A stretch of DNA of 6,692 nucleotides from the IMG/VR virus record IMGVR_UViG_3300001493_000033; one strand, written 5' to 3'. This DNA comes from a virus. Its lineage: Duplodnaviria > Heunggongvirae > Uroviricota > Caudoviricetes. Under the pieces are notes generated by a model. That model worked only from the letters and a program-made list of their open reading frames with translations, was not told the DNA's origin and did not search any database. The translations under genes were made by a program, and so were the position numbers. Positions 1 to 6,692 of the stretch are shown here, one piece after another; the first letter of the stretch is position 1; each line of letters opens with the position of its first letter.

Positions 1-10
1 GTGAATAATG

Positions 11-221
11 GGTGAAGGGTGAACATTCGATTCTTCACCTCCGGCATTCTGCCGGTGTGACTCATACCGGTGATTAATCCNCCGNACTGAAAATCACNCA
101 GGGAGAAAAAAGTTTTTTTTTGATTTGATTGTTCACACTGTTCACCTTTCATTTTTCTCTTTAAATTTCAGTGTGATAACGGGTGAATATACGGTGAAGG
201 GTGAACAGTGGATTGTTCACC
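11..221. repeat. Iteron cluster, crr-like (cis replication region) downstream of alpha
   Basis: Exact TGTTCACC at 139-146 and 214-221 and GGTGAACAG at 200-208; one-mismatch copies at 18-25, 32-39, 130-137, 182-189, 193-200; both orientations. Matches the octamer I recall as the P4 alpha-binding type I iteron. Confidence 0.6.
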
Positions 222-239
222 TTCGGGGAATTCAGGGAT

Positions 240-264
240 AAAAAAAGACCGGCAGATGCCGGTC
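240..264 (-). terminator. Intrinsic terminator of the alpha operon
   Basis: Inverted repeat gaccggca/tgccggtc at 247-264 (7-8 bp stem, GC-rich), followed on the minus strand by a 7-U run (A-run 240-246 on plus); begins 8 nt after the alpha stop codon (272-274). Confidence 0.6.
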
Positions 265-271
265 AGGTGGG

Positions 272-2605
272 TCAGGCTGTCGCAGGGTCGTCACATTTTG
301 GCAGCCAGTCGCCGTAGCTTTCCTCTTTCAGCGTCAGGTTGGTCTGTATCCCCTGTTTGGTATGGCGCTTCTCGTAATTCAGTCCGTATTCCTTCAGCAT
401 CACCGGCAGCCCCAGCCCGAACATTTTCAGACTGAGTACATTCCGGTAGCCGTTTGCCTCCATGTAGGCCAGATAGGCGTGATAGAGGTATTTACAGTAA
501 TTACGCGGGATGATACTGGCGTTCCCCATATACATGCCGCTGGTCTGCGGCAGGGTTTCCAGATAGCCGATAAAATCAAACGTCGGGTCGGCATCCCGTT
601 TGATGTTCAGTGCCTCGTCTGAGTTCTGCTGGGACTGAAGCAGTGACCGGGCGAGCATCGGGTCGCTGAATTTCTGCATCAGGTGACGCACGATGACCGC
701 CAGCTCGCGGGTGATTTTGTCCTTAAGCTGCGGGTCGCGCTCCTGCGGGGCTATCTGTTCCGGGAAGTGAATAATCACCCGCCGGCGTGACACGCCGCCG
801 CTGCGGTCGGTGAAGCGCATCGGGTTATTGTTCACGGCCAGAATNACCGCCGGNATATGCGTGGAGTACGCATCCCGGTATTTCGGGTCCACGGACACCG
901 CATCGCCGCCGGTGATGGCCTTGAGTCCGGCACCGTCGCCGCTCCATTTTTCCTGNTCCGGCAGGCGTATCAGTGAGAAGCCAGTTAACGCGGCACGTTC
1001 ACGCGGGGATTCCAGCGTCTCNATGGTGGCCGACGTGGCGTTATCCTCNCCNGCCAGCAGGGTGGCTATTTCGGCCATGATACTTTTGCCGCTGCCGCCG
1101 GGACCGGTCACCTCCAGAAAGAGCTGCCAGTCGTAGCGGTTTGCCAGCACCATAAACAGTGCNGCCAGAATCACGTCGCGTTTTTCCGCACGNCCACCGG
1201 CGGCACGGTCAAGCCAGCGCCAGAACGCGGGNGCGTGGGTTTCCAGCGTTTCACCNTCCACCGGCGGGGTGAAATCCACATCGCACAGGGTGCGCATCCA
1301 GTGTGACGGACTGTGCGGGTGGAACGTGCCGTTCTGCGTGTCGAGCACGCCGTTACGAAAGCCAATCAGGCGGCGGGAGGGGGCTTCCTGCTGCGGAATA
1401 ATCAGCTTCAGGGTGTCCACCACGGAGGCCACCTTCCCGGAGGAGAACGGCGCGCGCAGACGCTGAAACAGCCCGGCCACATCCCGGGCAAAGTCCTGTG
1501 GTGGCAGCACCTTCCAGACACCATTTTCATAACGGGACAGAAGCTGGCCGTTGGCATCAACCGCGAGCGCCTCGCCGTAATGCTCATAGATACGCATGGC
1601 CTTTTCGCTGGTACTCATGGCGGAAAACTCCGCTTCGCTCATGGTGTCGAACGGGCTTTCAGCCGGTGGCCGGATGGCATCGTAAATGGCCTTACGGGNG
1701 GCCTCCCCGCCGTACTGCGTGAAGGCATCATTCCAGTCACCGAAGACCGGCGGCAGGGCAACAACGCCCTCACACGCATCTGCGGCTGCGGCGGCTTTTT
1801 TCTGGCCGTCACCGCTGAGGTCACGGTCTGCGGCAAGGACAATCTGACAGGCCGGATGCTTCTGCCGGGCAAGGCTGGCCAGAGAAAGGAGGTTCACGGA
1901 AGAAAGCGCCACCATCACCGTTTCACCGGTCAGGTGATGTACGGTAAGTGCGGTCGCGTATCCCTCCGCTATCCACAGACGTTTTCCGGCCTGATTCTGT
2001 CCTTCAAGGNTGTGACAGGTGCCCCTGACCTGNCCGCCTTTCAGGGTGCGCTTACGGCCGTCAGCACTGATTAACTGAAGGTTAACCAGTTCGCCGCTGT
2101 CGTCATACAGTGGCACCACAAGGTCACCGGCGCGCCAGCTCACGCCACCGGCTCTGTGTGTGCCGGTCAGCATCCGGCATTCCCGGCCGGGAAAGCCCTT
2201 GCGGGTCAGGTAGGCGTTACCGGTTCCGGGACGGGTTTTCGCCATCAGGGTTTGTGCCAGTGCGGCGGCGTTCTTCCGGGCAGCGTCTGTTTCAGCACCG
2301 GCGGCNGCCGTCACTGCCGGGTCAGCCGGGGGCAGGCTGCCGGTCACGGCAGCCACCTTTGNGGCCGCGTCGGACGGGGAAACACCAAACACCTTTTCAA
2401 CCAGTTTCAGGCCGTCACCGGCACCACACTGATTGCAGTACCAGGTGCCGCGCCCCTCCCTGTCATCAAAACGGAANCGGTCACTCCCGCCACAGACCGG
2501 ACAGGGCTGATGACGGTTNTTCAGCACCTGAATCCCCAGCGCCGGGAGAATACGCGGCCAGTGGCCGAGCGCATGGCTGACGGTGGCGGTTACGTTNATT
2601 TTCAT
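272..2605 (-). CDS. alpha: P4 alpha-like multifunctional replication protein (zinc-binding primase N-terminus, TOPRIM, SF3/D5-type helicase), 777 aa
   Basis: N-terminal zinc motif CPVCGG...CNQCG; TOPRIM-like LWIAEGYATA...AADRDLSGDG; Walker A GPGGSGKS; RBS AAGGAG 9 nt before ATG at 2605-2603. Several X residues come from ambiguous bases but the frame stays open. Confidence 0.9.
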   Translation of the reverse strand: MKXNVTATVSHALGHWPRILPALGIQVLXNRHQPCPVCGGSDXFRFDDREGRGTWYCNQCGAGDGLKLVEKVFGVSPSDAAXKVAAVTGSLPPADPAVTXAAGAETDAARKNAAALAQTLMAKTRPGTGNAYLTRKGFPGRECRMLTGTHRAGGVSWRAGDLVVPLYDDSGELVNLQLISADGRKRTLKGXQVRGTCHXLEGQNQAGKRLWIAEGYATALTVHHLTGETVMVALSSVNLLSLASLARQKHPACQIVLAADRDLSGDGQKKAAAAADACEGVVALPPVFGDWNDAFTQYGGEAXRKAIYDAIRPPAESPFDTMSEAEFSAMSTSEKAMRIYEHYGEALAVDANGQLLSRYENGVWKVLPPQDFARDVAGLFQRLRAPFSSGKVASVVDTLKLIIPQQEAPSRRLIGFRNGVLDTQNGTFHPHSPSHWMRTLCDVDFTPPVXGETLETHXPAFWRWLDRAAGXRAEKRDVILXALFMVLANRYDWQLFLEVTGPGGSGKSIMAEIATLLXXEDNATSATXETLESPRERAALTGFSLIRLPXQEKWSGDGAGLKAITGGDAVSVDPKYRDAYSTHXPAXILAVNNNPMRFTDRSGGVSRRRVIIHFPEQIAPQERDPQLKDKITRELAVIVRHLMQKFSDPMLARSLLQSQQNSDEALNIKRDADPTFDFIGYLETLPQTSGMYMGNASIIPRNYCKYLYHAYLAYMEANGYRNVLSLKMFGLGLPVMLKEYGLNYEKRHTKQGIQTNLTLKEESYGDWLPKCDDPATA

Positions 2606-2619
2606 GGTGTTGTTCTCCT

Positions 2620-2940
2620 TCAGTGCAGTACCGGCGCTTTTATGTGACGGGCACAGAGTTCATCCNTCACAACCAGCCCGAGAAAGGACAGCGACGGCGC
2701 GGCCTTCAGGGGGCCGGATTCCATTAAATCTTCCAGCAGGGCACAGGCTATCTGACGCCCTTTTTCCTCACCGTGCTGGCGCAGATAAAAGCCTTCCAGC
2801 TCAGCGGCGATGGCCGCCTCCAGTGACTCAAGGGTGAGATGCGGGTAGCGGTGCTGACGTTCGCACACGGTCAGCCAGGCACAGGCGACAGCGCGACGGT
2901 AAAGGGCAGCGCGTAAGACGGGCGGTAAGGGTGTTTTCAT
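2620..2940 (-). CDS. Hypothetical protein, 106 aa, immediately upstream of and coupled to alpha
   Basis: ORF with RBS GGGAGG upstream of ATG at 2940; its TGA stop (2622-2620) overlaps the alpha RBS. No domain recognised by eye. Confidence 0.7.
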
Positions 2941-3075
2941 TTGCTTTCCTCCCTGTGACAGATGACTGCATTCCGTGCCGGTTGCATTAACTGATAAGGC
3001 ATATCTGCGTCTCCTGAAGACGTGCGTATCCCTGCGCGAATACGCACATTTAATTTTTCGGGTGTCGTTTTTTAA

Positions 3076-3704
3076 TTACAGATAATTGCGGTAACTGTTA
3101 TCCGGGGTGGTTTCCGGGTCAGGCTCCGTGCGGGGAATTTCCCGCCATTCCCGCGCTACCGGTGCTGCCCGGCTGACCGGAACAGGGTCCTGCGGGTAAA
3201 TATCCAGATATTTCTCCCGCCATTTCTGTAATTCCGGGTCTCCGGCCATTTCTTTCAGTACCGCATGCCGGTTTACGGAGCTGCGTTTAAACAGGTCAGG
3301 ACGGTCACAGGTAAATTCCCGCAGAAAACGCCCCAGCGGGATGTCTGTGGTGCGCCCGTCGGCGAGGATACGCACAAGGATACTGAATTTACGGCGGTAC
3401 GGATTCCAGACAATGTCCGGGCAGCGGTACGGCATTTCCCANNNNNNNNNNGGCTGCGTTTAAACAGGTCAGGGCGGTCACAGGTAAATTCCCGCAGAAA
3501 ACGCCCCAGCGGGATGTCTGTGGTGCGCCCGTCAGCGAGGATACGCACAAGGATACTGAATTTACGGCGGTACGGATTCCAGACAATGTCCGGGCAGCGG
3601 TACGGCATTTCCCACGGAATACCGTCTTCCAGAATGCCGACCACGGCCACATCGGGAAAACCGGCAGAACGGTAAATCTCACCGGGCTGGGGAAAATCAA
3701 ACAT
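3076..3704 (-). CDS. Hypothetical protein, P4 orf151-like; 151 aa once the gap-flanking duplication is collapsed
   Basis: The 143-aa and 119-aa ORF fragments overlap through a 162-bp duplicated segment either side of the N run; merging at MPYRCPDIVW gives 32 + 119 = 151 aa. RBS GGGAG 9 nt before ATG (3704-3702), which overlaps the upstream gene stop (ATGTTTGA). Confidence 0.65.
3280..3614. repeat. Duplicated 162-bp segment on both sides of a 10-N scaffold gap (3280-3441 and 3453-3614); probable assembly artifact
   Basis: Near-identical sequence (2 mismatches) directly flanking nnnnnnnnnn at 3442-3451; collapsing it restores a single in-frame 151-aa ORF. Confidence 0.6.
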
Positions 3705-3984
3705 GCGTCCTGTCTCCCCGGTCTTTCTGCTGGGCGAGAAAATCGCGGCACAGGCCTTTGGCTTTCAGCTCATTCAGCACAAAATCAATATCTTCATTCA
3801 GGTAACTGAAAATATGCGGAATGTAGAGCTGATGCAGGCCGGAGAGTTCACGGTGAATCAAATCACCCCCAACAAACTGGGATACGGCGCTGGCGCGGTT
3901 GAGCTTATGGTAAGCCTCAATGCTGAGGTGTTCACGGGCGTCATGACGTGCTGAGACGGTCTGAGGGGCTTTTTTATTACGCAC
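3697..3984 (-). CDS. Epsilon-position protein, 95 aa, GTG start
   Basis: Open frame ending in TGA at 3699-3697, overlapping the next start codon; in-frame GTG at 3984-3982 preceded by GGAGGU with 5-nt spacing; overlaps the stop of the upstream small ORF. Assignment is by position and size only. Confidence 0.5.
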
Positions 3985-4174
3985 GGGACACCTCCACCAC
4001 CGGCAGACGGGCAGCAAGGGAGAGCACATAGTCACGGACAAGGGAACGGCGGGCGCTGCGTTCATCACCGGCGACGGTGCGAAGCATGCAGATACGGGGA
4101 TGACGGTCTGCGCGACGGACAGCCGCAAACACAAAGACAAATTCAGGGTGTGAGGGGGTAAGGGTTGTAGCCAT
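3977..4174 (-). CDS. Small protein, 65 aa, Kil-position (possible host cell division inhibitor Icd/Kil-like)
   Basis: ATG at 4174-4172 with RBS GGAGG (4186-4182) 7 nt upstream; product [21 protein letters not shown]...; identical copy at 5969-6166. Function inferred from position in the P4 operon, not from sequence recognition. Confidence 0.55.
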
Positions 4175-4181
4175 GATGGCA

Positions 4182-4296
4182 GCCTCCTTGAAGTAACAGT
4201 TACAGCTACCACTGGAGTTCCTACGCTCATGGGTGGTAGCCCGGACGGGGGTAGGAATACCGGCCTTCAAGGAAACCGGCCAGCCCGAAGGCTGCC
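4182..4296 (-). ncRNA. P4-type immunity leader RNA region (CI-like): seqB-like element plus seqC-like target overlapping the Kil-like RBS
   Basis: Plus-strand cttcaagg (4265-4272) and gtaggaa (4251-4257) are complementary to ccttgaag/gttcctac at 4186-4226 and again at 4408-4433; local hairpin gctaccac/gtggtagc (4205-4212/4233-4240); CAGCC-UUCG-GGCUG tetraloop hairpin (4281-4294). RNA boundaries not determinable from sequence. Confidence 0.5.
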
Positions 4297-4377
4297 CCGC
4301 CCGGACCACCATTATCTGACAGAGGCTACGGTTTAAAAACCACAGCCAGAAAAACAGGTGTGCCGAAGCAACGACGT

Positions 4378-4399
4378 AAAAAAAGACGCATGGCGCGTC
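4378..4399 (-). terminator. Intrinsic terminator between the upstream seqA-like site and the seqB element
   Basis: Minus-strand GACGCGCCAUGCGUC (6-bp stem incl. one GU, 3-nt loop) followed by U7 (A-run 4378-4384 on plus); conserved in the second copy at 6406-6427. Confidence 0.55.
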
Positions 4400-4407
4400 A
4401 TATGTCG

Positions 4408-4433
4408 CCTTGAAGTAACTCGGGTTCCTACGC
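4408..4433 (-). promoter_or_regulatory. seqA-like upstream target site (direct repeat of the seqC-like site)
   Basis: ccttgaagtaac (4408-4419) and gttcctacgc (4424-4433) repeat the motifs at 4186-4197 and 4217-4226; both are complementary to the seqB element. Confidence 0.5.
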
Positions 4434-4462
4434 CCGGCTGCCGATTTTGCGGCAGCGGAGAA

Positions 4463-4492
4463 ACTATATCCGCAAATGCCGGAAAAAGGCAA
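4463..4492 (-). promoter_or_regulatory. Candidate sigma-70 promoter (PLE-like) reading toward the immunity region
   Basis: On the minus strand, -35 TTGCCT (4492-4487), 18-bp spacer, -10 TATAGT (4468-4463); conserved in copy 2 (-35 at 6515-6520, -10 at 6491-6496). Prediction by eye only. Confidence 0.35.
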
Positions 4493-4527
4493 GCCAGAAA
4501 AAGGGACTTTTTGCAGAGCGGGCATCA

Positions 4528-4794
4528 TCATGCGTCGTACCCCCGTTTGCGTCCGGCAATGCGCCCGGCCATCCATGCGGTGATTTCAGAGTGCAGCCAG
4601 GCCACATTTTTACCGCCAAGACTCACCTGCGGCGGAAATTCCCCCTTACGGATGAGTTCATAGATGGTCGAGCGTGACAGGCCGCACAGGTGCATCACTT
4701 CCGGCAGACGTAAAAAACGCTCCTGCGTGATGTCCGGCAGCGGCATCAGTGGCGTCACAGGGGCGGGAGACGGGGAAGAAAAAACAGCTTGCAT
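4528..4794 (-). CDS. alpA: AlpA/Vis-family phage transcriptional regulator (excision/integrase regulator), 88 aa
   Basis: Product contains the AlpA-type helix-turn-helix region [27 protein letters not shown]; RBS GAGGU 6 nt before ATG (4794-4792); same size as P4 orf88/Vis. Confidence 0.88.
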
Positions 4795-5073: not shown

Positions 5074-5178
5074 GGTGAACAGTGGTGAACAGACGGTGAA
5101 CAGTCATTACTGCGATTGTTCACCCNTTAACTTACTGTATTACTTATCTTTTTTCTTATGGTGAACAGAGGTGAACAG
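5074..5178. repeat. Iteron cluster, ori-like
   Basis: GGTGAACAG at 5074-5082, 5084-5092, 5095-5103 (about 10.5-bp phasing), 5160-5168, 5170-5178, and inverted TGTTCACC at 5117-5124; flanked by AT-rich sequence (4970-5070, 5180-5200). Confidence 0.6.
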
Positions 5179-5931: not shown

Positions 5932-5968
5932 NNNNNNNNNNGCTGAGACGGTCTGAGGGGCTTTTTTA

Positions 5969-6166
5969 TTACGCACGGGACACCTCCACCACCGGCAGAC
6001 GGGCAGCAAGGGAGAGCACATAGTCTCGGACAAGGGAACGGCGGGCGCTGCGTTCATCACCGGCGACGGTGCGAAGCATGCAGATACGGGGATGACGGTC
6101 TGCGCGACGGACAGCCGCAAACACAAAGACAAATTCAGGGTGTGAGGGGGTAAGGGTTGTAGCCAT
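5969..6166 (-). CDS. Second copy of the Kil-position small protein (65 aa)
   Basis: Same ATG and RBS context as 3977-4174; the coding region lies entirely within the near-identical duplicated segment. Confidence 0.5.
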
Positions 6167-6173
6167 GATGGCA

Positions 6174-6461
6174 GCCTCCGTTAGATAGCAGGTTACGCTA
6201 TCGCCGGAGTTCTCACGCTCGATGGCGATAGCCCAGACGGGGGTGAGAATACCGGCTCTAACGGATACCGGCCAGCCCGGAGGCTGCCCCGCCTGAGCTA
6301 CCATTGACTCAGTGGCATAACATGCGATTGCAAACAGGATCATACCTGCACGGCAAACCACACGCCACACCATAATCTGGCGCTCTGTGGCGTTGATTGC
6401 GACACAAAAAAAGACGCATGGCGCGTCATATGTCGCCGTTAGATTGCTCGGGTTCTCACGC
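6174..6461 (-). ncRNA. Variant P4-type immunity region (seqA-, seqB-, seqC-like sites with altered but mutually complementary sequences)
   Basis: seqC-like ccgttagatagc (6178-6189) and gttctcacgc (6209-6218); seqB-like gtgagaa (6243-6249) and tctaacgg (6257-6264); seqA-like 6436-6461; hairpin gctatcgcc/ggcgatagc (6197-6205/6224-6232); UCCG-loop hairpin 6273-6286; terminator 6406-6427. Confidence 0.5.
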
Positions 6462-6555
6462 CCGGCTGCCGATTTTGCGGCAGCGGAAAAACTATATCCG
6501 CAAATGCCGGAAAAAGGCAAGCCAGAAAAAGGGAGTTTTTGCAGAACAGGCATCA

Positions 6556-6692
6556 TCATGCGTCGTACCCCCGTTTGCGTCCGGCGATGCGCCCGGCCAT
6601 CCATGCAGTGACTTCAGAGTGCAGCCAGGCCACATTTTTACCGCCAAGACTCACCTGCGGCGGAAATTCCCCCTTACGGATGAGTTCATAGA
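6556..6692 (-). CDS. alpA: AlpA/Vis-family regulator, second copy, C-terminal part only (5-prime end beyond window)
   Basis: Near-identical to 4528-4664; stop codon at 6558-6556. Confidence 0.75.

Follow-up and report, generated by a model that had tools for sequence, protein, structure and literature searches.

An octamer array beside the alpha gene of a P4-like scaffold, very probably the alpha-bound cis half of a bipartite replication origin

The window analyzed in this study is a 6,692-nucleotide stretch of the viral record IMGVR_UViG_3300001493_000033 (Caudoviricetes). Comparison with phage records by megablast identified the window as closely related to the satellite phage P4, with an overall identity of 96.9%. 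Window bases 1-3441 are colinear with bases 4367-7805 of the P4 record X51522 at 98.0% identity, with Ns counted. All features are collected in Table 1. The alpha gene was recognized by its open reading frame and Pfam domains. A Zn ribbon, a Toprim primase domain, D5_N and Pox_D5/SF3 helicase domains, and a C-terminal winged-helix origin-binding domain were found within the protein. Residues 671-770 of alpha are identical at 99 of 100 positions to PDB 1KA8, the structure of the origin-binding winged-helix domain of P4 alpha. The terminator of the alpha operon corresponds to 'talpha' of P4 (P4 4604-4628, ahead of the alpha CDS). An array of octamers is found at the start of the window. It is located in non-coding sequence directly downstream of alpha and its terminator and, as read from P4 and the IMG/VR relatives, on the side of att and int. 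The GC content of the array region is 41%, compared with 56% for the window. An Rfam scan of window bases 1-270 found no RNA family.

Table 1 Features of the window, with the corresponding P4 positions where available (P4 coordinates as in X51522).
Feature	Window position	Strand	Remarks
crr direct repeat unit 1, last 44 nt	1-44		P4 4367-4410; first 76 nt lie off the window
Type I iteron, clipped by one base at the window edge	1-7	-	GTGAATA; P4 4366-4373 reads GGTGAATA / TATTCACC
Type I iteron	18-25	-	exact TGTTCACC
Type I iteron TCTTCACC	32-39	+	1 mismatch, as in P4
Spacer between crr units, ~60 bp	45-105		octamer-free
crr direct repeat unit 2, complete	106-226		P4 4471-4590; 121 nt, one extra T
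A6-G-T9 tract, start of unit 2	106-121		majority fraction 0.85 in relatives
Type I iteron TGTTCACA	130-137	+	1 mismatch
Type I iteron	139-146	+	exact; tandem with 130-137, 9-bp period
Type I iteron TATTCACC	182-189	-	1 mismatch
Type I iteron	200-207	-	exact; left palindrome arm
Type I iteron	214-221	+	exact; right palindrome arm
Rho-independent terminator of the alpha operon	240-264	-	stem-loop 264..247, T-run 246-240
alpha, primase-helicase gene	272-2605	-	777 aa; ORF and Pfam domains
ORF106 / cnr (DUF5375), P4 copy-number regulator gene	2620-2940	-	upstream of alpha
Rfam RNA matches, immunity copy 1	4229-4316, 4379-4469	-	
ori iteron cluster	5074-5177	five -, one +	six exact TGTTCACC; P4 9310-9413 'ori type 1 repeat'
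Rfam RNA matches, immunity copy 2	6221-6308, 6407-6497	-	

The octamer TGTTCACC was searched on both strands of the window, with up to one mismatch allowed. Seven complete octamers were found within bases 1-221, four of them exact, and both orientations are represented. The preliminary description had counted eight exact or one-mismatch octamers in both orientations. Seven of these are whole, and the eighth is the copy clipped at bases 1-7. Two more octamers, with two mismatches (GGTGAAGG), are found at 11-18 and 193-200. The two exact iterons at the right end of the array form the palindrome GGTGAACA-N6-TGTTCACC. For comparison, bases 1-221 were shuffled 20,000 times at matched composition. 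The shuffled sequences held a mean of 0.14 copies and a maximum of 3, compared with the 7 observed. For exact copies, the mean was 0.005 and the maximum was 1, compared with the 4 observed. In the 6341 nt of the window outside crr and ori, 4 one-mismatch octamers and no exact octamers were found.

The crr of P4 (X51522 4291-4590) is composed of direct repeats of 120 bp at 4291-4410 and at 4471-4590, and five annotated 'ori type 1 repeats' are located in each. The same stretch is annotated as 'direct repeat 1 cis replication region (crr)' in X05623, and crr is also annotated in X51522. The alignment of window bases 1-226 with P4 4367-4590 contains 4 substitutions, 3 N, and 2 one-base indels, and the identity over the aligned 224 nt is about 97%. 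The two indels sit in homopolymer runs, and no difference falls inside any octamer. All eight octamer positions coincide with the annotated 'ori type 1 repeats' of P4. Five iterons are located in unit 2, and three, including the clipped one, are located in the visible part of unit 1. This visible part shares 84% identity with the corresponding stretch of unit 2. The array had been called crr-like, and the alignment of bases 1-226 with the annotated P4 crr, with all octamer positions matching, bears this out. Judged from its sequence, the array is more than crr-like: it is the crr of an element of the P4 family, and every feature that defines crr at this level is found in it.

The placement of the array given in the preliminary description also holds. 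The array was said to lie directly beyond the alpha terminator, and the nearest octamer ends 18 nt past the T-run. The window was said to start inside the array, and it starts 76 nt into the 300-bp crr, with two octamers and one base missing. The octamers do not belong to an unrelated repeat family, since exact octamers in the whole P4 genome are found only in crr (5) and ori (6), with an expected number of 0.37. Within the first 275 nt, differences from P4 are densest at window bases 226-236, in the interval from crr to the terminator. The sequence here is GGGGAATTCAGGG in the window, with an EcoRI site, and GGGGGATATCGGG in P4, with an EcoRV site.

The distribution of the array was determined in bacterial genomes. 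Of 5426 complete E. coli genomes, 1081 (about 20%) carry the array region, in every case on the chromosome. In RefSeq, the array is without annotation, and the alpha CDS is the sole feature given at the match. The comparison set contained 80 loci with alpha homologues across Enterobacterales. Loci with an alpha of about 80-99% identity have the same arrangement downstream of the gene, with five octamers in each unit. Downstream of alpha homologues of 57-70% identity, the P4 octamer is rare, which indicates that the array as defined belongs to the closer P4 group. When other iteron types were sought downstream of the same homologues through 7-mers de novo, the signals obtained were weak and inconsistent (for example, CTTCACC and AGTGAAG). 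The number of crr units varies between elements: some P4-like elements carry one 120-bp unit with five octamers, and others carry two, like P4. One 120-bp crr unit suffices in P4, and the single-unit elements are consistent with this.

For the conservation analysis, 32 distinct regions downstream of alpha from Enterobacterales were aligned. The mean majority fraction over the 32 sequences was 0.93 for the octamers, 0.93 for the terminator, 0.85 for the A/T tract, and 0.71 for the spacers. The difference in conservation between octamers and spacers was verified by permutation (p = 5e-5). Octamer positions 1-7 (TGTTCAC) are nearly invariant in the 32 sequences, and position 8 varies. Octamers that are kept while the spacers drift are, at the level of this alignment, the signature of protein-binding sites under selection. 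An origin of the array as a chance cluster, or as a low-complexity artefact of an AT-rich intergenic region, would fit the low GC content of the region and the low quality of the scaffold, which contains 46 N. However, none of the 20,000 shuffles reached the observed count, and P4, the 1081 E. coli genomes, and other genera all conserve the same positions. The chance cluster was rejected on the basis of the shuffles and the conservation across relatives, and its probability is considered negligible.

The sequence to the left of the window was read on proxies, namely P4 and its relatives. The window is expected to continue leftward with the remaining 76 nt of unit 1 (AAAAAATTTTTTTTCGAAAGAACTGTTCACACTGTTCACC...). 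The 47 IMG/VR contigs that contain the first 70 nt of the window exactly were chosen for this analysis. In 46 of the 47, the 76 nt to the left of the shared stretch match the P4 crr with 0-7 mismatches. In P4, the sequence to the left of crr, which ends at 4291, contains an attP arm repeat (4151-4174), the attP core (4078-4097), and int (2607-3926). The leftward check proposed in the preliminary description thus finds both attP and int just left of crr in P4. An Int homologue is located 420-560 nt to the left of the array in 10 of the contigs and 9-11 kb to the right of the array in 15. These two arrangements are as expected for episomal or tandem forms and for integrated forms, respectively. 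The expectation of an integrase beyond the left boundary is therefore correct for P4 and the circular form and incorrect for integrated copies, in which int is found at the far end. Since attP is split on integration, the left neighbour of crr in such copies is a host junction and not int.

Among complete genomes, E. coli prophages come closest, with 99.2% identity over window bases 1-600. In the prophage of E. coli SMS-3-5, which shows this identity, the first base of crr is precisely where the P4 homology sets in. To its left lies unrelated sequence, and then come a rhuM remnant and host genes. In a prophage, the conserved features end with crr, and the junction comes next. A tRNA search of the 18.6-kb SMS-3-5 locus found none, and the tRNA/int end of the prophage lies outside that stretch. 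A SIR2-family gene is located after psu and the cos end of the same prophage (15974-18599 of the 18.6-kb locus). Its position fits the defence hotspot described for P4-like satellites (PMC8628076). A perfect match to the DnaA-box consensus, TTATCCACA, is located at P4 X51522 4281-4289, one base to the left of crr. This box is absent at the corresponding place in the SMS-3-5 relative, and its occurrence in P4 is therefore probably due to chance.

The short distance between crr and att in P4 bears on a second explanation, in which the octamers are arm-type integrase sites of the adjoining att recombination site. In P4, crr and the attP arm repeats are about 200 bp or less apart, and the array had been tied to an integrase and an att site in the preliminary description. 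However, the arm repeats of P4 (3915-3926, 3942-3965, and 4151-4174) read TGCCCCC, which is nothing like TGTTCACC. The octamer is found again at ori, at a distance of 4.9 kb, but not around attP. The SMS-3-5 prophage keeps its crr next to leftward sequence unrelated to P4, and relatives were found with an int only 34-58% identical to P4 Int beside an identical crr. Arm-type integrase sites were rejected since TGCCCCC is unrelated to TGTTCACC and the octamers do not flank the att core; this explanation is regarded as highly improbable. The crr array is a non-coding region of two repeats of about 120 bp, each with five type I iterons (core TGTTCAC), between the alpha terminator and att.

The second cluster of the octamer in the window is ori, at a distance of about 4.9 kb from crr. 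In P4, alpha binds the type I iterons in ori and crr and can bridge or loop the two. The orientation and distance of crr can be varied in P4. The oriI replicon (ori1 and crr) and the oriII replicon (ori2 and crr) have crr in common. Cnr raises the affinity of alpha for ori and crr, as a negative control. This mechanism of the P4 crr is reportedly described by Flensburg & Calendar 1987, Ziegelin et al. 1993, 1995, and 1997, and Tocchetti et al. 1999.

Based on the features above, window bases 1-226 very probably represent the right three quarters of crr from a P4-type satellite/phage-plasmid, that is, the alpha-bound cis half of a bipartite origin. The alpha protein, with its primase, SF3 helicase, and winged-helix domains, binds the P4 origin repeats and then unwinds and primes (PMC4234260; PMC2777425). 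The crr has been described as essential, or required in cis, for P4 replication (bioRxiv 10.64898/2026.03.30.715334; GenBank X51522 annotation). From the identical iterons and the near-identical binding domain, we infer that alpha would also bind the array in the window. In the proposed mechanism, the element's own alpha would bind the same octamer at crr and ori, 4.9 kb apart. Only when both sites are occupied on one molecule would alpha open ori, prime, and start replication. Cnr, the product of the neighbouring gene, would modulate the binding of alpha at crr and ori and control the copy number, and crr may have a secondary role in this control.

Copy-number control could also be the main purpose of the array. 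It would then act as a bank of negative-control iterons, which limits copy number by titrating alpha or by Cnr-stabilised 'handcuffing' with ori. The crr iterons are the same as those at ori, and cnr is located immediately upstream of alpha, as this explanation would have it. It also agrees with the increase of alpha affinity by Cnr and with the general use of such pairing in plasmid iteron systems. However, GenBank and later users call crr required in cis, which is a positive role. A mainly negative role is considered unlikely. It is compatible with the positive one, as a second function more than a true alternative to the role of crr as the cis half of the origin.

The iterons of crr and ori were compared between P4-like elements together with the winged-helix domain of alpha. 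For ori, IMG/VR contigs were used, and the 2500-nt alpha flanks of the genome loci mostly stop short of ori. Two iteron flavours were found. The P4 flavour, to which P4 and the window belong, has GGTGAACAGTGGATTGTTCACC in crr, and all 212 of the 212 ori iterons in its 37 contigs read TGTTCACC. The second flavour has AGTGAACACTTTACTGTTCACT in crr, and its ori iterons in 29 contigs read TGTTCACT in 61 cases and TGTTCACC in 80 cases. T-type iterons (TGTTCACT) at ori account for 0 of 212 in the P4 flavour, compared with 61 of 142 in the second flavour. The identity of the alpha winged-helix to that of P4 is 0.81-0.92 in the P4 flavour and 0.69-0.76 in the second flavour, in which the rest of alpha is 0.81-0.86 identical to P4. 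Both groups have kept the layout of ori.

The comparison suggests that the binding domain of alpha has co-varied with the iterons at both crr and ori. Physical linkage could explain the co-variation for crr, but not for ori. The comparison also lends modest support to the idea that one protein reads both ori and crr. P4-like satellites might fall into replicon-specificity classes, in which the alpha winged-helix and the iterons of ori and crr have changed together (TGTTCACC or TGTTCACT); this is put forward as a tentative proposal that is less likely to be right than wrong. If true, such specificity classes could allow the coexistence of several P4-like elements within a single genome, free of replication cross-talk or incompatibility.

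The window is not a single colinear piece of genome but a stitched scaffold. N10 gaps are located at 3442-3451 and 5932-5941, and 26 single Ns are scattered in the window. No viral contig was found to carry the window sequence across the N10 gaps. A 162-nt duplication extends across the first gap, with 3280-3441 and 3453-3614 being 98.8% identical. After the second gap, a second epsilon-cI-ORF88 immunity region is found, in which 5942-6692 is 86% identical to 3950-4664. This second copy is probably derived from another P4-like element. The Rfam families C4 antisense RNA (the CI immunity RNA of P4), isrK, and c4-a1b1 were each matched twice on the minus strand. The two immunity copies differ in sequence and may therefore have different immunity specificities. 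Window bases 4314-4371 (about 58 nt), between P4-homologous blocks, do not align with P4, in which the corresponding gap is about 103 nt (8505-8607). This stretch is a local replacement beside the CI RNA gene.

The crr is a long-known site; its sequence and name date from 1987, and the P4 GenBank records carry its annotation. For annotation, the octamer array is useful as a marker of the end of P4-like satellites on the side of alpha. Delivery vectors based on P4 must also retain the array.

Among known systems, the P4 crr is the closest. The likeness lies in the place just after the alpha terminator, the 120-bp units, and the eight iterons at the same positions and in the same orientations. 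The differences are trivial, and the window edge cuts off the first 76 nt. The element itself is a natural relative of P4 and not P4, as the overall identity of 96.9% indicates. When crr is compared with the P4 ori (ori1), the octamer is common to both, and the binding protein is presumably common as well. The ori contains six exact iterons spaced near the helical repeat (offsets 0, 10, 21, 43, 86, and 96), mostly in one orientation. The crr, in contrast, contains ten looser copies in two 120-bp units and in mixed orientation, with one palindromic pair and one 9-bp tandem pair.

A classical plasmid iteron origin contains direct iterons of about 17-22 bp in helical phase, a DnaA box, and an AT-rich unwinding element. 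No DnaA box was found within the crr of the window; unit 2 begins with an A/T tract. The octamers are in mixed orientation with irregular spacing, and a classical origin of this kind, with Rep, DnaA box, and AT-rich element, was rejected for the array. Theta plasmids with distant auxiliary iteron sites, such as R6K with the gamma ori and the alpha/beta sites, can also be compared. In both systems, an initiator acts at repeated short sites in two separated loci of the same molecule. In both, the distant locus works in cis, probably through looping, and copy-number control can make use of the same sites. The initiator of the P4-type system, however, is a fused primase-helicase with a winged-helix and not a protein of the Rep/pi type. 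The P4-type iterons are 8 bp long and are found in both orientations, whereas those of theta plasmids are about 20 bp long, and P4 replication is DnaA-independent.
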